A DNA stretch of 64,000 nt, taken from the NCBI RefSeq assembly GCF_003018255.1, contig NZ_CP027440.1, one strand, 5' to 3'. A program made the translations under genes and the position numbers. A model generated the notes under the pieces. That model searched no databases, was not told where the DNA came from, and saw only the letters and a program-made list of their open reading frames with translations. Each line of letters opens with the position of its first letter. The stretch's first letter is position 1. Shown here piece after piece: positions 1 through 19,904 of this stretch. This DNA is from Escherichia coli (GTDB lineage Bacteria > Pseudomonadota > Gammaproteobacteria > Enterobacterales > Enterobacteriaceae).

Positions 1-107
1 TGCTCCTGACTTAAGCTGCGCACCGACGGCAATTTCTCCCCGTGACGATACAGCCCTTGCTCAATCCGCTCGGCAAGTAGAGTCGCCAGATGTTGATAAC
101 GCGTCAT
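1..107 (-). CDS. yjiR: GntR/MocR-family transcriptional regulator, N-terminal 35 codons only (gene continues beyond window start)
   Basis: Minus-strand ATG at 105-107 preceded by AAGGA; translation MTRYQHLATLLAERIEQGLYRHGEKLPSVRSLSQE looks like a GntR-type winged-HTH N-terminus; lies next to yjiS as in K-12. Confidence 0.55.
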   Translation of the reverse strand, partial: MTRYQHLATLLAERIEQGLYRHGEKLPSVRSLSQE

Positions 108-283
108 GCTGTATTCCTTATTTGGACCATACAGAGAGAAAAACCGGTACAGATGAGGCTAAAAAACCGGATGCAGATGCTGTTTTAACCTGTCTGTATG
201 TTAAATAAAACTAATATTTGCATCTGTATTGTGAACTGCCAGAAGACGGATGATGAAGCCTCTGAAAGATGAGGAGGCAGCAG

Positions 284-448
284 ATGGAATTTCACGAAAA
301 CAAAGCTAAAGCACCGTTTATTGGACTTGTGCAACTCTGGCAGGCAGTGAGGCGTTGGCGGCGGCAAATGCAGGCCCGGCGGGTGTTACAGCAGATGAGT
401 GATGAGCGGTTGAGGGATATTGGGTTACGCAGGGAGGATGTGGAGTGA
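284..448 (+). CDS. yjiS: DUF1127-family small protein (54 aa)
   Basis: ATG at 284 preceded by GAGGAGG; hand translation MEFHENKAKAPFIGLVQLWQAVRRWRRQMQARRVLQQMSDERLRDIGLRREDVE; below the 60-aa cut-off of the ORF track. Confidence 0.7.
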   Translation: MEFHENKAKAPFIGLVQLWQAVRRWRRQMQARRVLQQMSDERLRDIGLRREDVE

Positions 449-544
449 TGGGGCAGTTCGTCGCGGATAAACAGGATTTCTCTATAACCTCCACAAGGAA
501 GTGGTTATTATTGCGAAATCATCGCTTCACGGAAAGACGTCAGA

Positions 545-2638
545 ATGAAAGCTACAGAAGCCCGCCTACTCGATTTTTTAAAACGTTCGCAGCAGTTTGT
601 TATTCCCATTTATCAACGGACTTATTCATGGACAGAACAACAATGTCGGCAACTTTGGGACGACATCATTCGTGCCGGAAAGCGTGACGATATATCAGCG
701 CATTTTATCGGTTCGGTTGTTTATATAGAGCAGGGATTGTATCAGGTTTCTGGTATTTCTCCGTTGCTGGTCATTGATGGTCAACAGCGGCTGACGACCG
801 CAATGTTGCTGATTGAGGCTTTATCACGCCATCTTGGCGAAGACGAAGTTTTTGATGGCTTTTCAGCAATGAAATTGCGTAATTATTATTTACTCAATCC
901 TTATGAGTCCGGCGAGAAAGGATTTAAATTACTGCTGACCGAGACTGATAAAGACAGTTTGCTGGCGTTAATAAAACAAAGACCAATGCCAGAAAACTAT
1001 TCCCATCGAATAATGGAAAACTTTACTTTCTTTGATGAACAAATTGCCAAACTCGGTGATGACTTGATCCCCTTATGTCGTGGGTTAGCAAAGTTATTAA
1101 TTGTCGATGTGGCGCTTAATCGTGGTCAGGATAATCCGCAACTGATTTTTGAAAGTATGAACTCCACCGGTAAGGCGTTAAGTCAGGCCGATCTGGTGCG
1201 CAATTTTATTCTGATGGGCCTCGAACCAGAGCATCAAACCCGGTTGTATGAAGATCACTGGCGTCCAATGGAAGTCGCTTTTGGTCAGCAAGGTTACAGC
1301 GAATATTTTGACAGCTTTATGCGTCATTATCTGACGGTAAAAACGGGGGAGATCCCTCGGACAGATGAAGTCTATGAGGCATTTAAACTCCATGCCCGCA
1401 GCCAGAGTGTTGCTGAAAAAGGCGTAGATCGGCTGGTTGAAGATATTCACATCTACGCGGAGTATTACTGTGCAATGGCATTGGGAAAAGAAAGTGACAA
1501 ATCGCTTGCTACGGCTTTTCAGGATTTGCGCGAGTTAAAGGTCGATGTGGCATATCCTTTCTTACTGGCGCTTTATCATGACTATAAAAATGGCGATTTG
1601 CCTCACGAAGATTTCCTGAGCATAATTCGTTTAATTGAATCTTATGTTTTCCGCCGTGCAGTATGTGCGATTCCGACGAATTCTCTTAACAAGACGTTTG
1701 CCACTTTTTATAAAGTCATTAATAAAGAAAAATATCTGGAAAGTATTCAGGTACATTTTCTGAATCTGCCTTCATATCGTCGTTTCCCCAACGATGATGA
1801 ATTTAAACGGGAATTAAAAGTTCGCGATCTCTATAACTTCCGTAGTCGCAGCTACTGGTTACGACGACTGGAAAACGATAAACGCAGAGAGCGCGTGGAA
1901 GAGTTTACGATTGAGCATATTATGCCGCAGAACGAAAATCTGTCGGCTAAATGGCGCGAAGAGTTGGGAAGCGACTGGCAGCGTGTGCATAAAGAATTGT
2001 TACATACGTTGGGGAATCTCACTTTAACGCGCTATAACTCCCGCTACAGTGACAGACCTTTCGCGGAAAAACGCGATATTGAAGACGGCTTTAAGCATAG
2101 CCCGCTTTATTTGAATATCGGTCTTGGACAGTGCGAAAAATGGGATGAAGCCGCCATTCACGCCCGAGCCGATCGTCTGGCCGATCTTGCGGTTCAGGTT
2201 TGGCAAGCGCCTGCTCTTCCTGAAGAGGTTTTAGCTGTTTATCGGGCGCAGCCGGAGAACAAAACCAGTTACAGCCTGAGTGATTATCCTTTTCTTGCTG
2301 ATGGTTCGCATAGCCGGGTGTTATTTGATCATCTTCGCGATGAAGTTATGCGCCTGGACGCAGGGATCACGCAGGAAGTATTGAAGCTCTATATTGCGTT
2401 TAAAGCTGAAACGAATTTTGTTGATGTTGTGCCGCAAAAAAGCCGACTGCGATTGTCGCTTAATATGCAGTTTCATGAACTGGTCGATCCGAAAGGTATT
2501 GCCAAAGATGTGACAAATGTTGGGCGATGGGGCAATGGCGATGTGGAAATTGGTTTCAGTGACCTCGCACAACTTCCTTACATTATGGGATTAATTCGTC
2601 AGGCATTTGAAAAACAGATGGAGAACGCGTTGGTATAA
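545..2638 (+). CDS. GmrSD-like DUF262 (ParB/Srx-like NTPase) + DUF1524 (His-Me finger nuclease) protein; candidate modification-dependent type IV restriction endonuclease, 697 aa
   Basis: N-terminal motifs IPIYQRTYSW and DGQQRLTT typical of DUF262; C-terminal EHIMPQN...H...GNLTLT...N resembles a DUF1524 His-Me nuclease motif; sits where K-12 has yjiT-mcrCB. Confidence 0.75.
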   Translation: MKATEARLLDFLKRSQQFVIPIYQRTYSWTEQQCRQLWDDIIRAGKRDDISAHFIGSVVYIEQGLYQVSGISPLLVIDGQQRLTTAMLLIEALSRHLGEDEVFDGFSAMKLRNYYLLNPYESGEKGFKLLLTETDKDSLLALIKQRPMPENYSHRIMENFTFFDEQIAKLGDDLIPLCRGLAKLLIVDVALNRGQDNPQLIFESMNSTGKALSQADLVRNFILMGLEPEHQTRLYEDHWRPMEVAFGQQGYSEYFDSFMRHYLTVKTGEIPRTDEVYEAFKLHARSQSVAEKGVDRLVEDIHIYAEYYCAMALGKESDKSLATAFQDLRELKVDVAYPFLLALYHDYKNGDLPHEDFLSIIRLIESYVFRRAVCAIPTNSLNKTFATFYKVINKEKYLESIQVHFLNLPSYRRFPNDDEFKRELKVRDLYNFRSRSYWLRRLENDKRRERVEEFTIEHIMPQNENLSAKWREELGSDWQRVHKELLHTLGNLTLTRYNSRYSDRPFAEKRDIEDGFKHSPLYLNIGLGQCEKWDEAAIHARADRLADLAVQVWQAPALPEEVLAVYRAQPENKTSYSLSDYPFLADGSHSRVLFDHLRDEVMRLDAGITQEVLKLYIAFKAETNFVDVVPQKSRLRLSLNMQFHELVDPKGIAKDVTNVGRWGNGDVEIGFSDLAQLPYIMGLIRQAFEKQMENALV

Positions 2639-2684
2639 CGTGGCGAATAATACCCGGTAGCACTGGCGCTACCGGGTCAATGTA

Positions 2685-3026
2685 TCAGGCGACTTTCTGT
2701 TTACCCGCAATCACCCCAATAAATTCCCGCACCTGCTTTTGTTTACGCGCCGACAGCTTGCACACCTGGCGCAGCGACTGCATTAGCTCGCTCTCTTCGG
2801 GGGCGGGTGGTTGGGCGGTGAGGACAATACAGCCTTCCATCACTTTGACAGCTATCGCCGTGCCGGTGGCAAAACCGGCGGCTTCCAGCCACTGACCTTT
2901 CAGGGTGATGGCGGGAATACGGCTGTAATCCGGGTAGCGACTCGCATAACTCACGGTTAATTGACGGTTATTTGCCGGGGAGACTTCTGCTTCGAACGGT
3001 TGTGCAATAGAATGCGTGTCAGTCAT
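2685..3026 (-). CDS. symE: SymE SOS-induced toxin (type I toxin-antitoxin, AbrB-fold RNase-like), 113 aa
   Basis: Translation from ATG at 3024-3026 ([52 protein letters not shown]...) matches SymE; AAGGA Shine-Dalgarno; the ORF-track N-terminal extension is probably not translated. Confidence 0.85.
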
Positions 3027-3097
3027 AACTGCTATTCCTTGAAAATAGTGATTGTGATGAGCGGTGCGGGTGTGTTGGCGCACATCCGCACCGCGCT
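3020..3097 (+). ncRNA. symR: SymR-like cis-antisense sRNA covering the symE start codon and 5' UTR (approximate ends)
   Basis: Plus-strand -10 TAGAAT at 3008-3013 with weak -35 TTCTGC; the start would fall a few nt inside symE, as described for SymR; a 14-bp stem-loop at 3062-3095 could be the 3' end. Boundaries are inferred. Confidence 0.4.
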
Positions 3098-3104
3098 AAA
3101 TACC

Positions 3105-3120
3105 TGGATATATCATCAGT
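3105..3120 (-). promoter_or_regulatory. Candidate LexA box in the symE promoter
   Basis: Minus strand reads CTGATGATATATCCAG, i.e. CTG-N10-CAG with an AT-rich core, about 80 nt upstream of the symE ATG; symE is a known SOS gene. Confidence 0.35.
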
Positions 3121-3197
3121 AAATACAGGGAAAGTCCAGCTAAAAATTAATGAAAATAAGATAGAAGTTAGCGTGAAATATAATTTTTGGTGATGTG

Positions 3198-11597: not shown

Positions 11598-13748
11598 TTA
11601 GTGGTGCGAAGAGATCTTCACGCCGCCTTCCGGGATTGGAACGTACGGAGTTTCTTTGTCAGTACGTTTGTCGCTGTTACGCACCGCAAGCCAGGTTTTG
11701 AAACCGTAGAAGATGATGCTGTACACCACAATCAGGAACAGAATACTCAGACCCGCGTTAGTGTAGTTGTTCACAACGATGTGGTTCATGTTGGCAATCT
11801 GCTGTGCCGTCAGGTCAGTACCGTTAGCAATCTTCTCTTTGTACTGGCTTGCCATGTAGAAGAAGCCTTCCATCTGCGGGTTGGTGCTGAACAGTTTCAG
11901 GCCCAGCGCCCAGGTGGTGCAGATAAGCAGCCATACAGCCGGAACAACAGTTACCCAGATGTATTGGGTGCGCTTCATCTTAATCAGCACAACGGTGCCC
12001 AGTACCAGTGCTACGGCTGCCAGCATCTGGTTGGAAATACCGAACAGCGGCCACAGGCTCTTAACGCCGCCCAGCGGATCGACCACGCCCTGATACAGCA
12101 GGTAGCCCCACAGACCCACACAGCCCGCAGTACCGATGATACCAGCAACCAGAGAGTCGGTTTTTTTCAGGAACGGGATGAAGTTACCCAGCAGGTCTTG
12201 CAGCATAAAGCGGCCAGAACGGGTACCCGCATCCAGCGCGGTCAGGATGAACAGGGCTTCGAACAGAATACCGAAGTGATACCAGAAGCCCATGTCAGCC
12301 ATCGGCAGCACTTTGTGGAACACGTGCGCGATACCTACCGCCAGCGTCGGCGCACCACCTGCACGGTTCAGGACAGAAGGTTCACCAATGTCTTTCGCGG
12401 TTTGCAGGATCTGCTCTGGCGAAATCACGAAGCCCCAGGAGCTGACGGTCGCCGCCGCGTGTGCGGTAACGTCTTTCAACTGCGCCATGATGATCGGCGC
12501 GTTCTCGCCACCCATTTCATGCAGGTTAGGCATGGTGATGCCAAGGCCAGCAGGCGGGGTGTTCATCGCGAAGTAAAGACCCGGTTCGATGATGGACGCA
12601 GCAACCAGCGCCATAATCGCCACGAAGGACTCCATCAGCATTGCGCCGTAGCCAATGAAACGCGCGTCGGTTTCGTTAGCCAGCAGTTTCGGCGTCGTAC
12701 CGGAAGAGATCAGCGCGTGGAAGCCAGATACCGCACCACAGGCGATGGTGATGAACAGGAACGGGAACAGAGCGCCTTTCCACAGCGGGCCAGTACCGTC
12801 AATGTACTGGGTCATCGCAGGCATTTTCAGTTCCGGGTTCAGCACCACGATACCCAGCGCCAGGCCGACGATAACGCCGATTTTCAGGAAGGTTGCCAGA
12901 TAGTCGCGTGGTGCGAGGATCAGCCACACCGGCAGCAGCGCGGAAACAAACGCATAGCCAATCAGCGCGAAGGTAATGGTGGTGTCTTTAAAGGTCAGTG
13001 CCGGACCCCAGTACGGATCGTGAGCAATCACGCCACCGAAGTAGATAGAGGCAACCAGCAGCACGATACCAATGACAGAGACTTCACCCACACGCCCCGG
13101 ACGAATAAAGCGCATGTAGATACCCATAAACAGCGCAATCGGTACGGTTGAGCAAACGGTGAAGACACCCCACGGACTTTCGGCCAGGGCTTTAACCACA
13201 ATCAGCGCCAGGACGGCGAGGATGATGATCATGATTAAGAAACAGCCAAACAGCGCGATAGTCCCCGGTACTGGCCCCATCTCTTCTTTGATCATCTCAC
13301 CAAGAGATGCGCCATTACGGCGAGAGGAGATAAACAGCACCATAAAGTCCTGAACCGCACCGGCCAGCACGACCCCCGCCAGCAGCCACAGCGTGCCAGG
13401 CAGGTAGCCCATCTGCGCGGCGAGAACCGGACCCACCAGCGGACCTGCACCGGCGATAGCGGCGAAGTGGTGACCAAACAACACGTAACGGTTGGTCGGA
13501 ACGTAGTTCAGACCGTCGTTGTTAATAACCGCAGGCGTCGCGCGCGTGGGGTCGAGTTTCATCACCTTCTGGGCGATGTACAGACTGTAGTAGCGATAAG
13601 CCACCAGATACACCGACACAGAGGCGACCACGATCCACAGGGCGCTGACGTGCTCCCCCCGACGTAATGCAACTACCGCGAGGCAGAATGCACCGATGAT
13701 TCCGAGAATCACCCAGGGTATGTGCTTGAATATCTTTTTAGTATCCAT
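11598..13748 (-). CDS. btsT: CstA-family pyruvate/H+ symporter BtsT (YjiY), 716 aa
   Basis: MDTKKIFKHIPWVILGIIGAF... from ATG at 13746-13748; polytopic CstA-like protein. Confidence 0.9.
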   Translation of the reverse strand: MDTKKIFKHIPWVILGIIGAFCLAVVALRRGEHVSALWIVVASVSVYLVAYRYYSLYIAQKVMKLDPTRATPAVINNDGLNYVPTNRYVLFGHHFAAIAGAGPLVGPVLAAQMGYLPGTLWLLAGVVLAGAVQDFMVLFISSRRNGASLGEMIKEEMGPVPGTIALFGCFLIMIIILAVLALIVVKALAESPWGVFTVCSTVPIALFMGIYMRFIRPGRVGEVSVIGIVLLVASIYFGGVIAHDPYWGPALTFKDTTITFALIGYAFVSALLPVWLILAPRDYLATFLKIGVIVGLALGIVVLNPELKMPAMTQYIDGTGPLWKGALFPFLFITIACGAVSGFHALISSGTTPKLLANETDARFIGYGAMLMESFVAIMALVAASIIEPGLYFAMNTPPAGLGITMPNLHEMGGENAPIIMAQLKDVTAHAAATVSSWGFVISPEQILQTAKDIGEPSVLNRAGGAPTLAVGIAHVFHKVLPMADMGFWYHFGILFEALFILTALDAGTRSGRFMLQDLLGNFIPFLKKTDSLVAGIIGTAGCVGLWGYLLYQGVVDPLGGVKSLWPLFGISNQMLAAVALVLGTVVLIKMKRTQYIWVTVVPAVWLLICTTWALGLKLFSTNPQMEGFFYMASQYKEKIANGTDLTAQQIANMNHIVVNNYTNAGLSILFLIVVYSIIFYGFKTWLAVRNSDKRTDKETPYVPIPEGGVKISSHH

Positions 13749-13976
13749 AGTAAAACCTGGCATGTATTGATTAATAGTTGGCCGAAGCCGTTCTAGGTTT
13801 GCGTTGCGTTTGAGGAGGTAAATTGACCGCTATCCTGCAGTGATGTTGCCAGAGTTACGCGCGCGTAAAGTAAGGTAAATAACTGAGTGGTTATTTTAGG
13901 GACGTAAGCGGTCAGGAATGGCGGTGAGCGGTTGGGCAAGAATTATTCGTCGGGTGGATATGTGATTGAGATCACA

Positions 13977-14011
13977 ATAAAAATGCCCCTTCGATAATTA
14001 ACCGAAGGGGC
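13977..14011 (-). terminator. Rho-independent terminator after the D-serine-dehydratase-like gene
   Basis: 9-bp GC-rich stem GCCCCTTCG/CGAAGGGGC with 9-nt loop immediately after the stop at 14016, followed on the minus strand by a U-run (plus-strand A-run 13977-13983). Confidence 0.5.
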
Positions 14012-14015
14012 GTTC

Positions 14016-15236
14016 TTAGAAGAGAGTGTCTAATTCTGCCAGTACGTTGTAGTCGTCATCAGTCAATAACAACGTTTTCCATTTGTCGAAGGTCAGGCAC
14101 GGATGCGATGTGCCAAACACCAGAATATCCCCCACTTGCACGTCGCTATTAGCTGACAGTTGCAACATGCAGTGCTGATCCATAATACCTGTACTGCGAA
14201 TCGCCTGTGGATCAAATGCCAGTGATTTGCCGTTGCGGTAGTGGGCGACTGGTTGCGGCAGTCCGGCGTCGAAGGCGCAATCACGCTTACCAAAATTTAC
14301 CACCGCACGATCAGCTTCCGGCACCGATTGCACCATGGCGACCAGTTCCAGCGCAGATGTGAGATCGCCTGCCAGATCGCAGGCCACAGGATCACGGGCA
14401 AGCAACTGTTGTTGTGCCGCGTCGTAGATCCCGGTGTCGTGAGTGATGTAGCAGCCAGGGCGAATAACAATGCGGCAGTTATCAGGCTTTTCTGCCGCCA
14501 GCCAGATATTGCACACCACGTCATACCAGACCGTGCCTGCTCCGGTGAGAATAAACTCGCCATCAACCAGACTTGCCATATCACAGGCCAGTTGTGCGGC
14601 ATCCCGCAGCAGAGCTTCTACCTGCGGTTGTGGATCGTCACCGTGTAAAACGCCTTCATATAACTCAAGCCCCCGCAGGCGTAACCCCGGTAATTGGGCT
14701 GCCTGTTTAGCCAGTGTCAGTGCGGCATCCCTTGAGCGGCAACCACAGCGCCCGCCGGGGACACCCAACTCAATCATCACGTTCAGTGTCTGTTGCTGAC
14801 TGGCAAAAAAGGCAGACAAAGCGCGGGCGTTCTCAATGCTGTCGATACAGCAGATAAAATCGACCGTCGGGTAATGTCGTTGCAACTGGGCAATCAACTG
14901 CATATTCGCCTTGCCGACCAGCTGGTTAACCATCAGCACTCGCTGAATACCGCTCGCCATTGCCGCACCAGCCTGCCATGCGCTACCGACACCTATTGCC
15001 CAGGCGCCTGCCGCCTGCTGCGCCTGAAAAATCCACGGCGTCATGGTGGTTTTACCGTGCGGTGCCAGCGAAACGCCGCGCGCGTCAGCATAACGCTGCA
15101 TCCACGTAATGTTGTTCTCCAGGGCCTGCTTTTTAATGATCGCGGCAGGTAAACAGACATCTTCGGCAAGGAGATTTGCGGGCATTTGCATCAGGGCAGA
15201 TTTATGGGGAACCAGAGGTTCTGAGTGGTATTTCAT
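14016..15236 (-). CDS. PLP-dependent D-serine dehydratase-like enzyme (DSD1 / alanine-racemase-fold; D-Ser/D-Thr dehydratase or aldolase family), 406 aa
   Basis: N-terminal alanine-racemase-like domain with HGKT lysine motif (APHGKTTM), matching the HxKT signature of DSD1-type enzymes; accessory gene between btsT and tsr. Confidence 0.75.
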   Translation of the reverse strand: MKYHSEPLVPHKSALMQMPANLLAEDVCLPAAIIKKQALENNITWMQRYADARGVSLAPHGKTTMTPWIFQAQQAAGAWAIGVGSAWQAGAAMASGIQRVLMVNQLVGKANMQLIAQLQRHYPTVDFICCIDSIENARALSAFFASQQQTLNVMIELGVPGGRCGCRSRDAALTLAKQAAQLPGLRLRGLELYEGVLHGDDPQPQVEALLRDAAQLACDMASLVDGEFILTGAGTVWYDVVCNIWLAAEKPDNCRIVIRPGCYITHDTGIYDAAQQQLLARDPVACDLAGDLTSALELVAMVQSVPEADRAVVNFGKRDCAFDAGLPQPVAHYRNGKSLAFDPQAIRSTGIMDQHCMLQLSANSDVQVGDILVFGTSHPCLTFDKWKTLLLTDDDYNVLAELDTLF

Positions 15237-15436
15237 AACATTTACCTTTTAAGTTTTTCACCGTATCGGATGTGAGTATCACTTGTAACTAAATGAAATA
15301 TAAATATTTAGTTTATTTATCTTATTATTTATGAATAAAAGTATCATAAAATCATCTGGGTTTTGCGTAGTTTTCCACTGTTTTTCGTCCTTGTAAATGG
15401 TTAACTTGTCACCATTGCAGAAATGGAGTGACGAAC

Positions 15437-16879
15437 ATGCAGGTTGACTGGTTAATCAAAAATGTGACCGTTATCGACGGTAGCGGCGGCCCTGAATTTC
15501 GCGGTGACGTGGCAATAACAGGTGATCGGATTGTCGATATTGCCCCTGCGCTTAACGTTACGGCGCAGCAGGTCATTGACGGGGAAGGGCGGGTGCTGGC
15601 ACCCGGGTTTATCGACGTTCATACCCATGACGATATCAACGTTATTCGCATCCCGGAATATCTGCCAAAGATCAGCCAGGGGATCACTACGGTGATTGTC
15701 GGTAACTGCGGGATTAGTGCGGCGTCGGCGAAAATGAAAGGTGAAGTTCCTGACCCGATGAATCTGTTGGGGGAAGCAGAGCACTTTATTTATCCTACCG
15801 TTGAAAGCTATGCCCAGGCAGTGGAAGCAGCCAGGCCGTCACTGAACGTTGGCACGCTGATTGGTCATACGGCGCTGCGTAATAACCATATGGACGACCT
15901 GTTTCGCCCGGCGACGGTGGATGAAATTGCCGCTATGCGTGCCGACTTACGTCTGGCGTTGAGTCAGGGGGCGCTGGGGTTAAGTTCCGGGCTGGCCTAT
16001 GCAACGGCATTTCAGGCGACTACCGAAGAAGTCATGGCGCTGGCGGAAGAATTAGCCGGTGAGAAGGGCGTTTATACCACCCATCTGCGTTCTGAATTTG
16101 AACCGATTCTCGATGCCCTGGATGAGGCGTTTCGTATTGGGCGTCATGGCAAAGTGCCTGTCGTGGTTTCCCACCATAAATGTGCCGGGGCGAAAAACTG
16201 GGGGCGGACAAAAGAAACGTTGGCCTTTTTTGACCAAATGCGTCAACACCAGGAAATTGGCTGCGATGTCTACCCTTACTCAGCCAGCTCTTCAACGCTG
16301 GATCTCAAACAAGTCACCGACGAATTCGATATTGTGATCACCTGGTCACAAACACATCCGCAGCAGGCCGGGAAAACACTGGCGCAAATCGCCATCGACT
16401 GGCAGATGAGTATGCTGGAGGCCGCGAAGCTGCTAATGCCTGCCGGGGCTATCTATTACAACATGGACGAGCGCGACGTCCGCCGAGTGTTGAGTTATCC
16501 GGTCAGTATGATTGGCTCTGACGGCCTGCCCAATGATCCCATGCCGCATCCACGTTTATGGGGCGCCTTCCCTCGCGTGCTGGGCCACTATTGCCGTGAT
16601 GAAGGCTTATTCCCACTGACCACGGCTATCCACAAAATGACCGGGCTTTCTGCCAGCCGTTTTCGCCTGCCCCAGCGTGGACTGGTGAAAGTCGGTTATT
16701 TTGCGGACCTGGTGTTGTTCGATCCACAAACCATTCGTGATGTTGCCAGCTTTTCTGATCCCAAACGCCCGGCAGATGGCATTGAGGCGGTGATGGTGAA
16801 CGGCGTTATGAGCTATGGTCCCGATAAACATATTACAGGCCGTGCGGGACGCTTCCTGCGCCGGCAGACCTCACATTAA
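15437..16879 (+). CDS. N-acyl-D-amino-acid deacylase (D-aminoacylase) family amidohydrolase
   Basis: MQVDWLIKNVTVIDGSGGPEFRGDVAITGDRIVDIA...APGFIDVHTHDD (metal-binding HxH); ATG at 15437 with GGAG upstream (the ORF track starts at a GTG at 15428). Confidence 0.8.
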   Translation: MQVDWLIKNVTVIDGSGGPEFRGDVAITGDRIVDIAPALNVTAQQVIDGEGRVLAPGFIDVHTHDDINVIRIPEYLPKISQGITTVIVGNCGISAASAKMKGEVPDPMNLLGEAEHFIYPTVESYAQAVEAARPSLNVGTLIGHTALRNNHMDDLFRPATVDEIAAMRADLRLALSQGALGLSSGLAYATAFQATTEEVMALAEELAGEKGVYTTHLRSEFEPILDALDEAFRIGRHGKVPVVVSHHKCAGAKNWGRTKETLAFFDQMRQHQEIGCDVYPYSASSSTLDLKQVTDEFDIVITWSQTHPQQAGKTLAQIAIDWQMSMLEAAKLLMPAGAIYYNMDERDVRRVLSYPVSMIGSDGLPNDPMPHPRLWGAFPRVLGHYCRDEGLFPLTTAIHKMTGLSASRFRLPQRGLVKVGYFADLVLFDPQTIRDVASFSDPKRPADGIEAVMVNGVMSYGPDKHITGRAGRFLRRQTSH

Positions 16880-16888
16880 GGAGTGAAT

Positions 16889-17278
16889 ATGAGCATTAAA
16901 CGTTACGGTACGGAAGGTGGAACAGGCACTGGCGGGCAGCATTTGCCTTTTGCCAGGGCGGTTGAGGCGGGCGGCTGGCTGTACGTCTCCGGGCAAACAC
17001 CCATGAAAAACGGTGAAGTGGTAGAAGGCGGAATCGTTGAACAGTCACGACTGGCGATCCAAAACTGTGTCGACATCATGACTGAAGCCGGTTATAGCCT
17101 GGCGGATGTGGTTCACGTGAAAGTGATCCTGACCGACGCCCGCTATTTCCAGTCATTTAATAAAGTATTCAGAGAATTTTTTGGCGAGAATCCGCCTGCA
17201 CGTATTTGTTGTGTGGCTGATCTGGTTGTCGATTGTAAAGTCGAAGTCGATGTGACCTGTTATAACGCGACCCGCTAA
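16889..17278 (+). CDS. RidA/YjgF-family reactive enamine/imine deaminase
   Basis: 129-aa YjgF-like protein; strong TAAGGAG Shine-Dalgarno 5 nt before ATG at 16889; begins 10 nt after the aminoacylase stop. Confidence 0.8.
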   Translation: MSIKRYGTEGGTGTGGQHLPFARAVEAGGWLYVSGQTPMKNGEVVEGGIVEQSRLAIQNCVDIMTEAGYSLADVVHVKVILTDARYFQSFNKVFREFFGENPPARICCVADLVVDCKVEVDVTCYNATR

Positions 17279-17380
17279 TAAATTTAAGAATTAAAAAAAC
17301 AGACCGCAATTGAGTGCTGAATACATTCAGCACTCCGGGAACTCTTACATTAATTTCTCTCTACTGGCAGGATGTGAATT

Positions 17381-18850
17381 ATGAACAGTCATATCTTTTT
17401 AGTCGGCTTTATTATTTATGCCATCGCCATGATTTGGCTTGGTTGGTTTGTTTCTCGTAATCAGAAAAGCGGAGAAGATTTTCTGCTGGGCGGGCGTTCG
17501 CTGCCGCTGTTTCTGACGCTGGGGTCAACCGTTGCCACGATGGTTGGCACGGGTTCCAGTATGGGGGCAGTGGGCTTTGGCTACAGCAATGGCTGGGCCG
17601 GAATGCTTTATGGCGTCGGTGGAGCCGTAGGTATATTGCTGGTGGCGTGGCTGTTTGCACCGGTACGTAAATTACGTTTTATGACCATGAGTGAAGAACT
17701 CTCTTATTATACTGGCGGTAGTCATTTAATTAAAAATATTGTCGGCCTGATGATATTTATTGCCTCTATTGGCTGGCTGGGGGCGCATATATTAGGTGGA
17801 AGTATGTATCTTGCCTGGGCGACGGGTATTGATCTTACTGTGGCAAAATTAATTATCGCCTTAGCTTTTGCGATTTATGTTATTATCGGCGGTTATTCGG
17901 CGGTAGTGTGGACAGATACTATTCAGGCCCTAATTCTGTTCTTTGGCTTTATATTAATGGCTATTCTTGCCGTTGTTCACGTTGGCGGCTGGAGTGCGAT
18001 TGAGCAGGCGATGGACCCAAAAGCGATGAGCCTGTTTGCGATTGATAAAATGGGCGTGCTGCCTGCGCTTTCGCTGGCACTGGTTATTGGCGTAGGTGTG
18101 CTGGCAACACCGTCTTATCGCCAGCGTATTTACTCGGGTAAAGATGTTCCCTCTGTACGCCGTTCGTTTGTTATTACTGGGGTGTTATATCTGTTCTTCT
18201 CGATTTTGCCTGCCATTATCGGCATGGCGGCGTTCACCATGAACCCAAATCTGGAAAACAGCAACTACGCCTTCTTGTTCGCGACCAGTTTCTTACCTGC
18301 CATTCTTGGGCTGGTGGTGCTGATTGCCGGGCTTTCAGCCACCATGTCTTCTGCCAGCTCCGATGCCATCGCGGCGGTGGCGATTATGATGCGCGACGTC
18401 TACACCATGATTACCGGCAGAATGCCGCCGGAGGACAAGGCCATTACTTACTCACGCTGGATGTTGACCTTTGTTATTGGCCTGGCGCTGGTCTTTGCTC
18501 TGACCTCTAATGACATCATCAGCTACATTACCAAAATGATTTCGATGCTGATGTCCGGGCTGTTTATCTGCTCGATTCTCGGTCGCTTCTGGCTACGCTT
18601 TAACTGGCAGGGCGCGCTGGCGGTGTTAGTGAGCGGTATGGTGATGTCAATTGTGGTGCTGATGAATGCCGACTGGCTGGCTTACTGGGGTAACCCGTGT
18701 ATTCCGTCAGTGCTGGGCAGCCTGGTCGCTGGCGTACTGGTGACGTTGGTAACGCCAGCAAGTCAGGTCAGCCGGGAAGAAGCTTTGGCGATTATCACCA
18801 ATGAGCGTGAAAACCAGAGTGTCGTGATCACCAAACCTGAAGAAGCATAA
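17381..18850 (+). CDS. Sodium:solute symporter (SSS) family transporter, 489 aa
   Basis: Polytopic protein with SSS-like motifs (FLLGGRSL, GGYSAVVWTDTIQA); preceded by AGGA. Confidence 0.8.
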   Translation: MNSHIFLVGFIIYAIAMIWLGWFVSRNQKSGEDFLLGGRSLPLFLTLGSTVATMVGTGSSMGAVGFGYSNGWAGMLYGVGGAVGILLVAWLFAPVRKLRFMTMSEELSYYTGGSHLIKNIVGLMIFIASIGWLGAHILGGSMYLAWATGIDLTVAKLIIALAFAIYVIIGGYSAVVWTDTIQALILFFGFILMAILAVVHVGGWSAIEQAMDPKAMSLFAIDKMGVLPALSLALVIGVGVLATPSYRQRIYSGKDVPSVRRSFVITGVLYLFFSILPAIIGMAAFTMNPNLENSNYAFLFATSFLPAILGLVVLIAGLSATMSSASSDAIAAVAIMMRDVYTMITGRMPPEDKAITYSRWMLTFVIGLALVFALTSNDIISYITKMISMLMSGLFICSILGRFWLRFNWQGALAVLVSGMVMSIVVLMNADWLAYWGNPCIPSVLGSLVAGVLVTLVTPASQVSREEALAIITNERENQSVVITKPEEA

Positions 18851-18859
18851 CCAACAATG

Positions 18860-19765
18860 CTAATCGCCAAGTGGCTGGCGGTTAGCGCCCCCACGGTGGC
18901 TGTCTAACACCAGTTTTATCCGCCGCAGGCGATCTTTCGCCTGCGCTTTATTTGCCATTGCCAGTTCTGTTGCCAGTACATCGACCATGGCTAACATCGC
19001 GTAGCGGGAAGGGGTGGGCTTAAAGATGTAATCACTTTCCTGAACCAGTAACGGCAATACCAGATCCACCTGTTCCGCCAGCGGTGTTTGTGCTGGTGTA
19101 ATGGCAATAACACGCGCGCCATACTGACGGGCGATTGCCGCACTTTCGATGATTTCCGGTGTATAACCGCCCAGCGACAGTACAATCACCACATCCTGCG
19201 GCATCACTGCCGAGCACATCATTCTCATCATCAGGGCATCATTCTGACTGACCACCGGTAGCCCCAGACGGAATAAACGGTACTGAATCTCCTGTGAACA
19301 GATGGTGGAACCGCCGCCAGTTCCCAATGCAAGAATTTGCCGCGCCTGACTTAACCAGCTTACAGCCTGGCTGATGGCATTCATATCCAGCGAACGACGA
19401 TGCGTTTCCAGCACGCTAATAATCGCTTCGTAGATCCCCTGAACACCGTCAAGATCCGGTACATCGAGAATAAACCGCTGCCCGACAGCCAGTGACTGCG
19501 CCAGTTTGACTTTCAACTCGCGGACATCTTTGCACCCCAGTGCACGGGCAAAACGCGTCACCGACGCCTGACTGGTTTGCGTTAACCGCGCCAGCTCAGC
19601 AATGGGCAGTTCCACCGCGGCGGGGACATCATCAAGAATAAATTGTGCGATACGCTTTTCAGTGGCGGTTAACGCCATAAACCGTTCGGTAATACAGGAG
19701 ATGATATCGATGCTATAAGCCATAGGAGTATCACTGGTTCGAAGAAGATTGATACTTTGTACCAT
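18860..19765 (-). CDS. RpiR/MurR-family transcriptional regulator (N-terminal HTH + SIS sugar-phosphate-binding domain)
   Basis: LTATEKRIAQFILDD HTH region followed by a SIS-like domain; start uncertain (candidate ATGs at 19765, 19723, 19678). Confidence 0.75.
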   Translation of the reverse strand: MVQSINLLRTSDTPMAYSIDIISCITERFMALTATEKRIAQFILDDVPAAVELPIAELARLTQTSQASVTRFARALGCKDVRELKVKLAQSLAVGQRFILDVPDLDGVQGIYEAIISVLETHRRSLDMNAISQAVSWLSQARQILALGTGGGSTICSQEIQYRLFRLGLPVVSQNDALMMRMMCSAVMPQDVVIVLSLGGYTPEIIESAAIARQYGARVIAITPAQTPLAEQVDLVLPLLVQESDYIFKPTPSRYAMLAMVDVLATELAMANKAQAKDRLRRIKLVLDSHRGGANRQPLGD

Positions 19766-19846
19766 AAACTGCCGCTATAGAGTGTGACCCTCACAAAAAA
19801 CGCAAGTTTGCTGCAACAAAAGCAGTGCCGACGCTTTTCCACAGCA

Positions 19847-19873
19847 TAAAGTTTTCCACCACCAGGCCGACAA
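19847..19873 (+). promoter_or_regulatory. Sigma-28 (FliA) class III flagellar/chemotaxis promoter of tsr
   Basis: TAAAGTTT-N11-GCCGACAA matches the FliA consensus TAAAGTTT-N11-GCCGATAA; about 30 nt upstream of the tsr ATG. Confidence 0.55.
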
Positions 19874-19904
19874 CCAGTGTATCTGTCTAGTGGAAAGAGA
19901 AACC

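Follow-up and report, generated by a model that had tools for sequence, protein, structure and literature searches.

Between btsT and tsr, a 64,000-nucleotide stretch of Escherichia coli DNA (RefSeq assembly GCF_003018255.1, contig NZ_CP027440.1; the window, hereafter) contains a five-gene island that is probably a compact, cytoplasm-only ong (oxidized N-acetylglucosamine) catabolic cluster for an N-acetyl-2-amino-2-deoxy-hexonate, with 2-acetamido-2-deoxy-D-gluconic acid (GlcNAc1A) as the reference substrate. A first-pass annotation of the region had taken the same five genes for an N-acyl-D-amino-acid or D-serine catabolic module. The existence of the gene set is confirmed, and the pathway itself is largely already described and catalogued in E. 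coli. The genes and their flanks are as follows.

11598–13748, minus strand: btsT, the left flank.
14016–15236, minus strand: ongC homologue, 406 aa; by homology, a fold-type III enzyme that depends on pyridoxal 5'-phosphate (PLP), a 2-amino-2-deoxy-aldonate (D-glucosaminate-type) deaminase/dehydratase; RefSeq name "amino acid deaminase".
15437–16879, plus strand: ongB homologue, 480 aa; predicted metal-dependent N-acetyl-aminoaldonate (GlcNAc1A-type) deacetylase.
16889–17278, plus strand: ongD homologue, 129 aa, beginning 9 nt past the ongB stop codon; by homology, an enamine/imine deaminase; RefSeq name "RidA family protein".
17381–18850, plus strand: ongIT homologue, 489 aa; RefSeq name "sodium:solute symporter family protein".
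18860–19723, minus strand: ongR homologue, 287 aa, convergent with ongIT; RefSeq name "MurR/RpiR family transcriptional regulator".
19905: ATG start codon of tsr, the right flank.

The first-pass coordinates, 13764–19904, are the exact intergenic span between btsT and tsr. Within it, the open reading frame (ORF) list and RefSeq, in its annotation of strain JNE23-011 with a 99.5%-identical copy of the island, both place five intact ORFs (14016–19723), bearing out the gene identities given on the first pass. The ORF list starts ongB at a GTG at 15428; a GGAG ribosome-binding site precedes the ATG at 15437. The stop codons of ongIT and ongR are 9 nt apart. In K-12 MG1655, btsT (b4354) adjoins tsr (b4355) at a distance of 377 bp, and alignment of the window with a K-12-like genome confines the island-specific DNA to ~13976–13985 through 19844, with the right breakpoint relative to K-12 at 19845. 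The block was correctly regarded as accessory: it is absent from K-12, and among 5,426 complete E. coli genomes it is present whole in 193, and its deaminase gene in 194, all copies being chromosomal. The island set thus makes up ~3.6% of sequenced E. coli.

The lead to the pathway came from a search of the amidohydrolase against PDB sequences; an NCBIfam scan of the five proteins returned only sub-threshold or generic matches and did not identify the pathway. The ong pathway was described in Pseudoalteromonas prydzensis ACAM 620 as a means of oxidative chitin utilization (Jiang et al. 2022, Nat Commun 13:5899; PMC9537276). Chitin oxidized by lytic polysaccharide monooxygenases (LPMOs) gives rise to GlcNAc1A, which is imported by OngIT, an SSS transporter required for growth on GlcNAc1A, and deacetylated to D-glucosaminate (GlcN1A) by OngB, the first enzyme of the pathway; the fold-type III PLP enzyme OngC then converts GlcN1A to 2-keto-3-deoxygluconate (KDG) and ammonia, and KDG is phosphorylated by KdgK (PMC9537276). 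OngD, a RidA protein, is essential in vivo in P. prydzensis, and OngR, a MurR/RpiR-family protein, represses the ongCRBD operon until GlcNAc1A relieves the repression; ongIT belongs to a separate operon in this organism (PMC9537276).

All five island proteins are orthologue-level matches to the Pseudoalteromonas cluster, with Pfam and NCBIfam families in agreement. Pseudoalteromonas sp. ZZD1 served as the reference, its OngB being 92% identical to the crystallized PpOngB (a 100%-identical OngB sits on a 2.7-kb contig), and the near full-length identities to the E. coli proteins are 45% for OngC (over 386 aa), 54% for OngB, 84% for OngD, 58% for OngIT and 44% for OngR. The two clusters share the same five cytoplasmic or inner-membrane functions and, at all but one position, the OngB active-site signature. 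They differ in that the Pseudoalteromonas cluster also has the receptor OngOT-1, KdgK, the GH20 enzyme OngA and an LPMO, all four of which the island lacks, and in gene order: in E. coli, ongC is divergent from ongB-ongD-ongIT and ongR is convergent at the end, whereas the Pseudoalteromonas order is ongC-R-B-D followed by ongIT-(kdgK)-ongA. Residue 348 of OngB (PpOngB numbering) also differs, being Asn in E. coli and Gly in Pseudoalteromonas. Homologous loci were collected by scanning one genome per bacterial species and keeping the best 80 of 485 confirmed OngB-family relatives. Among these, the five proteins all have homologues at one Vibrio locus (L062), with KdgK and Eda after them; a second (L071) has this whole set and, in addition, a GH20-like hexosaminidase and a lactonase; and at a third (L081) the five homologues are present and a kinase and aldolase were not found at the locus.

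Occurrence in E. coli is also on record. Supplementary Data 3 of the ong study lists 13 E. coli strains (E308, CVM N36401PS, FWSEC0057 and others) as "ong cluster +", together with E. fergusonii ECD227, Escherichia sp. MOD1-EC4550 and strains of K. pneumoniae (PMC9537276). Its E. coli rows give tags for ongC, ongR, ongB, ongD and ongIT and dashes for lpmo, ongOT-1, kdgK and ongA (PMC9537276). Because that table holds exactly this five-gene set, both the pathway and the presence of its genes in E. coli were already known; the first-pass annotation knew of no characterized E. coli pathway with such a composition.

The PDB matches of E. coli OngB are a K. pneumoniae "amidohydrolase family protein", published as KleDacyl (9G5M/9GV8; E = 1e-281, 84% identity), and PpOngB, deposited as a "carbohydrate de-N-acetylated protein" (9KB1/9KB3; E = 4e-167, 54% identity); 9G5M and 9KB1 outscore the Alcaligenes D-aminoacylase 1M7J and the Bordetella N-acyl-D-glutamate deacylase 3GIP. 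The first-pass annotation had named a D-aminoacylase-type amidohydrolase; the enzyme is not of dihydroorotase or allantoinase type. The metal ligands Cys91, His216 and His246 and the catalytic Asp362 (480-aa numbering) correspond to PpOngB Cys97, His222, His252 and Asp368 and form a subtype V site. The acetamido and carboxylate anchors and the Cys/His/His plus Asp machinery are common to PpOngB and the D-aminoacylases; what is particular to PpOngB is that Ser290, Ser291, Ser292, Gln298 and Glu226 bind the sugar hydroxyls, while Ala193, Ala256 and Gly348 form the lining of the pocket (PMC12017989). Seven of these eight signature residues are identical in E. coli (Ser284–286, Gln292, Glu220, Ala187 and Ala250 in 480-aa numbering, with Asn342 at the eighth position), and of the 15 PpOngB substrate-contact residues 14 are kept, the sole change being Gly348 to Asn. 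In characterized D-aminoacylases, position 292 is Thr, position 298 is Leu or Arg, and the pocket is lined by Phe191, Met254 and Met346 (PMC12017989). At these positions E. coli OngB has Ser, Gln, Ala, Ala and Asn, so that the residues lining its side-chain pocket are polar or small, and it lacks the D-aminoacylase signature.

The remaining proteins fit the same assignment. OngC contains the Pfam domains Ala_racemase_N and D-ser_dehydrat and matches PDB entry 3gwq at E = 1e-106 with its PHGKT and SHPC motifs both aligned. The candidate PLP lysine, Lys62 of PHGKT, and the His-x-Cys pair His378/Cys380 of SHPC are kept in 3gwq and in Pseudoalteromonas OngC. In fold-type III D-serine dehydratase-like enzymes the C-terminal His-x-Cys is a metal site. 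OngC has the domain architecture and motifs of the family that holds fold-type III D-serine dehydratase, D-threo-3-hydroxyaspartate dehydratase and D-threonine aldolase (3WQC, 4V15, 3GWQ), but the island protein is far from the characterized dehydratases and aldolases of that family (E = 1e-18 to 1e-28) and groups with the OngC clade, whose substrate is D-glucosaminate. The first-pass description of this gene product as a D-serine-dehydratase-like PLP enzyme holds for its domains, but it is not one of the classical D-serine dehydratases; the DsdA type, which is fold-type II, was rejected on the Pfam domains.

OngD carries a catalytic-type arginine, Arg105, in a PPAR motif that aligns with the PAR motif of RidA-family PDB structures, and scores 82 bits against TIGR00004, under the 106-bit cut-off. 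The active-site arginine of Salmonella RidA is likewise Arg105. OngD is far more conserved than its partners, at 84% identity between E. coli and Pseudoalteromonas (locus L084, 11463–11846) compared with 44–58% for the others, and at 84–96% within Enterobacterales; this high conservation possibly reflects a constraint beyond generic imine hydrolysis. OngIT matches the NCBIfam sss superfamily and falls under the PutP and PanF cut-offs. It is 68–69% identical to its Vibrio homologues and is predicted, by analogy with the characterized transporter, to import an N-acetyl-aminoaldonate. OngR combines helix-turn-helix (HTH) and SIS domains; its best NCBIfam match is HexR-like at 198 bits, under the cut-off, its identity to the Vibrio homologues is 51–55%, and by homology it would be a MurR/RpiR-family repressor.

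Several observations weigh against a GlcNAc1A pathway in E. coli. KleDacyl, the 84%-identical Klebsiella enzyme, does hydrolyze N-acetyl-D-Met, N-acetyl-D-Phe and N-acetyl-D-Trp in vitro (PMC12149444), and OngC also deaminates D-Ser and D-Thr (PMC9537276). OngB has Asn rather than Gly at position 348, and its closest relatives are linked to DgoK/DgoA rather than to KdgK/Eda; the true substrate may therefore be a different epimer. The island itself is without kdgK (no such gene lies between ongIT and ongR), an aldolase and an LPMO, and no homologue of the GH20 enzyme OngA or the TonB-dependent receptor OngOT-1 is present in the island or its flanks; the link to chitin is therefore indirect, and completion of the pathway needs genes outside the window. 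Finally, a literature search found no experiment with GlcNAc1A on an ong homologue from E. coli or other enterobacteria, and on ong function in enteric bacteria, E. coli included, it returned nothing beyond three ong papers.

The first two of these points form the case for general salvage of N-acyl-D-amino acids, in which deacylation would be followed by PLP-dependent dehydration to pyruvate or 2-oxobutyrate, with RidA quenching 2-aminoacrylate. KleDacyl was published as a D-acylase that stereospecifically cleaves the three substrates named above and N-acetyl-aminobutyrate (PMC12149444), and the D-Ser and D-Thr side activities belong to P. prydzensis OngC (PMC9537276). The kinetics of KleDacyl are very poor, however, with Km values of 19–32 mM and kcat/Km of 1.5–2.8 per min per mM on N-acetyl-D-amino acids; its best substrate, N-acetyl-D-Met, has a Km of 32 mM and a kcat/Km of 2.8 per min per mM (PMC12149444). 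PpOngB acts on GlcNAc1A with a kcat/Km of 1.6 per s per mM (PMC12017989), and the best KleDacyl value is ~30-fold under this. The KleDacyl substrate panel did not include GlcNAc1A (PMC12149444). PpOngB and two homologues (76% and 57% identical to it) deacetylate GlcNAc1A specifically; on N-acetyl-D-serine the characterized OngB enzymes are inactive or nearly so, and other N-acetyl-D-amino acids are not attacked at all (PMC9537276, PMC12017989). In E. coli OngB every one of the D-aminoacylase residues Thr292, Leu/Arg298, Phe191, Met254 and Met346 is replaced. D-Met, D-Phe and D-Trp would not be substrates for elimination of a beta-hydroxyl. An SIS-domain regulator also fits a sugar acid better, as do the keto-deoxy-sugar-acid kinase and aldolase genes that eight of the 14 enterobacterial loci have between symporter and regulator, which suit a sugar-acid and not an amino-acid product. 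Amino acid salvage is thus a very improbable function for the island, and the substrates proposed on the first pass (N-acetyl-D-Ser, N-acetyl-D-Thr, D-Ser and D-Thr) are not those best supported, since OngB has the Ser292, Gln298, Glu226, Ala193 and Ala256 of GlcNAc1A deacetylases. The specificity residues of KleDacyl (K. pneumoniae WP_002887553.1) are identical to those of E. coli OngB, and the reported activity is probably promiscuity of an OngB orthologue, the sugar-acid deacetylase of the Klebsiella ong cluster.

It could also be argued that the island is a decaying remnant: an ong cluster truncated by loss of the kinase, the aldolase and the periplasmic parts, through which E. coli can no longer run a complete pathway. 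Relatives have two more genes between ongIT and ongR, where the E. coli stop codons nearly meet, and three related loci (L012, L013 and L021, from Enterobacter sp. Ag1, Cedecea neteri and Enterobacteriaceae RIT693) keep ongC, ongB, ongD and ongR and have lost not only the kinase and aldolase but the symporter too. In each of three E. coli copies that were examined, the five ORFs nevertheless run unbroken over their full length, the deaminase gene is an annotated CDS at 97.5–99.5% identity in 40 listed genomes of the 194 that are island-positive, and the blocks in the regulatory region are conserved. In E. coli K-12 both dgoK and dgoA are found, and kdgK and eda also belong to its genome; because these core genes are present, copies of the kinase and aldolase within the island would be redundant. 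Decay therefore seems a very improbable explanation.

A third possibility concerns the epimer rather than the pathway. The enterobacterial ong branch, including the island, might act on N-acetyl-D-galactosaminic acid, or on both C4 epimers, and feed 2-keto-3-deoxy-D-galactonate (KDGal) to DgoK/DgoA without any tie to chitin. Such a route, with D-galactosaminate as the OngC substrate, would enter the De Ley-Doudoroff branch, OngB residue 348 would act as an epimer switch, and the E. coli island would rely on the core dgo genes. At eight of the 14 enterobacterial loci, a DGOK-family kinase (PF05035, 302 bits) and a KDPGal-aldolase-family protein (NF006600, above the cut-off) lie between ongIT and ongR (13476–14973 in L004 and homologous positions in L005, L007–L011 and L015), tightly packed in Leclercia, Cedecea, Rahnella, Buttiauxella and others. 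In Leclercia the pair shows 51% and 70% identity to DgoK and DgoA of E. coli K-12. Jiang et al. labelled such genes kdgK/kdgA or absent, entering the kinase as kdgK for a handful of strains and as missing for the majority (PMC9537276). The only difference between KDG and KDGal is at C4, so linkage of a cluster to DgoK/DgoA suggests a galacto substrate. Residue 348, read from an OngB alignment of 81 loci (it is residue 342 of the 480-aa window protein), parallels this linkage: all enterobacterial and Burkholderiales sequences have Asn there, those of Pseudomonas, Andreprevotia and Pseudoalteromonas have Gly, and those of Vibrio have Cys, while the KdgK-linked loci (L043, L078, L062 and L071) all fall in the Gly or Cys group. 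In the KleDacyl crystal, Asn342 and Glu220 touch a bound glycerol, and Glu220 corresponds to PpOngB Glu226, the C4-hydroxyl ligand (PMC12149444, PMC12017989). No GH20 hexosaminidase lies within 10 kb of the enterobacterial or Paraburkholderia loci, and the table of Jiang et al. gives no ongA, and no lpmo for E. coli and most other listed enterics (PMC9537276).

Against a galacto substrate, no kinase or aldolase is encoded in the E. coli island itself, and the other sugar-contact residues, Glu226 among them, are identical to those of the GlcNAc1A-specific PpOngB. Phylogeny confounds the correlation at residue 348, which spans only two or three independent clades, and a literature search did not find a natural source or catabolism of N-acetylgalactosaminate. 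Paraburkholderia DgoK/DgoA, which appeared to offer independent support, lie behind their own IclR-type (KdgR-like) regulator, with genes for an AraG-like ABC ATPase and an SDR aldose dehydrogenase beside them; this evidence counts for less, as the pair probably belongs to a neighboring galactose-oxidation module. The galacto substrate and the route through the De Ley-Doudoroff branch are therefore tentative proposals, each somewhat doubtful on this evidence.

The enterobacterial ong-like clusters as a group (Leclercia, Klebsiella, Cedecea, Rahnella, Buttiauxella) have the gene order of E. coli, with 73–96% protein identity, and the Leclercia cluster is directly upstream of tsr, as in E. coli; the E. 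coli island differs in lacking the kinase and aldolase genes. The marine clusters have KdgK/Eda where the enterobacterial clusters have DgoK/DgoA. The organization in Pseudomonas is unlike that of either group: at most Pseudomonas loci (L016–L080) OngC, OngD and an SSS transporter were not found within 10 kb, and at one of them (L029, 7636–11431) the OngR and OngB homologues follow a GntP-family transporter.

If the activities of the characterized homologues carry over to the ong cluster of E. coli, the OngIT symporter would take up an N-acetyl-2-amino-2-deoxy-hexonate, for which the reference is GlcNAc1A, the C1-oxidized product of chitin or GlcNAc. OngB, as a Zn/Co amidohydrolase, would strip the acetyl group to yield D-glucosaminate and acetate. 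OngC would then catalyze PLP-dependent loss of the C3 hydroxyl to give an enamine/imine, and OngD would speed the hydrolysis of this intermediate to 2-keto-3-deoxy-hexonate and ammonia. Core-genome KdgK/Eda, or DgoK/DgoA in the case of a galacto product, would complete the conversion to pyruvate and glyceraldehyde-3-phosphate, and OngR would repress the cluster until the substrate, its presumed effector, appears. Since E. coli is without the LPMO, outer-membrane receptor and periplasmic hexosaminidase, it would be a scavenger of monomer freed by others or by chemical or host oxidation.

A route with the same overall outcome is the Salmonella dga pathway (PTS components DgaABCD, with DgaE and DgaF), which likewise takes a glucosaminate-type aminoaldonate through a keto-deoxy sugar acid phosphate to pyruvate and glyceraldehyde-3-phosphate. 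The dga route phosphorylates its substrate during uptake by the phosphotransferase system (PTS) and uses an unrelated dehydratase, whereas the island has no PTS component and deacetylation and deamination would precede phosphorylation. The "D-glucosaminate degradation" ascribed to ST95 is a MetaCyc prediction (PWY-7310) and presumably refers to the dga route. The logic first proposed for the island, namely uptake, de-N-acylation, PLP-dependent alpha,beta-elimination and a RidA step, matches the characterized ong pathway (PMC9537276). The suggestion that an RpiR/SIS regulator points to a sugar-like N-acyl D-amino acid also fits, N-acetyl-D-glucosaminate being formally an N-acetyl-D-amino acid.

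The RefSeq product names do not reflect the 2022 pathway assignment, and the correct label turns five vaguely named genes into a testable nutrient niche for the E. coli strains that carry them. Should GlcNAc1A be the substrate, oxidized chitin products from LPMO-bearing microbes or fungi would be open to these strains by cross-feeding. If the galacto proposal is true, the island would belong to a new amino-sugar-acid pathway, and the crystallized "D-acylase" KleDacyl would be re-assigned. The residual interest lies in the E. coli phenotype, in the variant that combines DgoK/DgoA with Asn348, and in the likely mis-assignment of KleDacyl.

The site between btsT and tsr looks like a hotspot whose cargo is exchanged by recombination. 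Comparison of the window with five other loci (the K-12-like L002, the hpa-type L003, L004, L085 and L087) reveals four states of the interval: empty, as in K-12; occupied by an hpa (4-hydroxyphenylacetate) cluster; occupied by the ong island, as in the window; and occupied by a hydroxyproline-catabolism cluster followed by ong, as in strain 99-3165. In Leclercia, hpa genes, the ong cluster with dgoK/dgoA, and tsr stand in a row. A classical mobile island was considered and rejected: no mobility gene is annotated in the island region (no integrase, transposase or tRNA target), the two island junctions have no direct 8-mer in common, and the GC content (51.7%) is near that of the 64-kb window (51.0%). 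The btsT–ongC junction of the window is shared by only 159 of the 193–194 island-positive genomes. On the btsT side, the window and hpa-type genomes have ~60 bp more spacer in common than either has with K-12-like genomes (window 13916–14011), and this extra sequence takes in the terminator stem, though without its loop, that closes the gene pointing inward (ongC or hpaC). The likeness hints at a common ancestral junction for the ong and hpa cargo.

Poultry or avian isolates, several avian pathogenic E. coli (APEC) strains among them, account for 15 of 40 genomes in an evenly spaced sample of the island-positive set; in a comparable sample of the whole collection, none of the 24 island-negative genomes is listed from chicken or poultry and two come from wild birds. 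An association of the island with poultry and birds is suggestive only, the counts being uncorrected for clonality or sampling bias.

The non-coding portions of the island contain the following elements, the conserved blocks being taken from an alignment of 13 enterobacterial ongC/ongB intergenic regions.

13985–14011, minus strand: strong intrinsic terminator just past ongC, with an 11-bp stem (7 G-C pairs) and a T-run; from a terminator scan and an inverted-repeat search.
15237–15436: AT-rich divergent ongC/ongB control region.
15274–15282: conserved block GAGTATCAC in the ongC/ongB region.
15332–15346: conserved block TGAATAAAAGTATCA upstream of ongB.
15361–15385: conserved block TTTTGCGTAGTTTTCCACTGTTTTT in the ongC/ongB region.
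15390–15407: conserved block CTTGTAAATGGTTAACTT in the ongC/ongB region.
17312–17335, plus strand: hairpin GAGTGCTGAAT-AC-ATTCAGCACTC, a perfect 11-bp stem with no T-run, in the 102-nt ongD–ongIT spacer.
19724–19844: ongR upstream region, ending at the right island boundary.

The terminator past ongC would shield the btsT promoter region from read-through, and in E. coli with hpa at the same site its stem is identical and its loop different. The conserved blocks between ongC and ongB are, from their alignment, candidate promoter and OngR operator elements; a generic sigma-70 scan found no more sites than in shuffled sequence, and no promoter is claimed. The heptamer AGTATCA occurs five times in the window, and four of these copies are in the two regulatory regions of the island (15275–15281, 15340–15346, 19727–19733 and 19750–19756). 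Upstream of ongR, two of them form an inverted repeat, AGTATCA (19727–19733) with TGATACT (19750–19756). The element TGATACTTTGTACCA in the same region reads TGATAC-TTT-GTACCA in E. coli, and in most other Enterobacterales it is the palindrome TGGTAC-TTT-GTACCA. The heptamers and the palindromic elements upstream of ongR are candidate OngR operators, through which the regulator may control its own gene. Possible roles of the ongD–ongIT hairpin are attenuation, control of RNA stability and the marking of an operon boundary. The spacer RNA folds at −21.8 kcal/mol (z = −2.6), and in other Enterobacterales this position is likewise occupied by a GC hairpin, though with another sequence, so that the structure is kept and the sequence is not.

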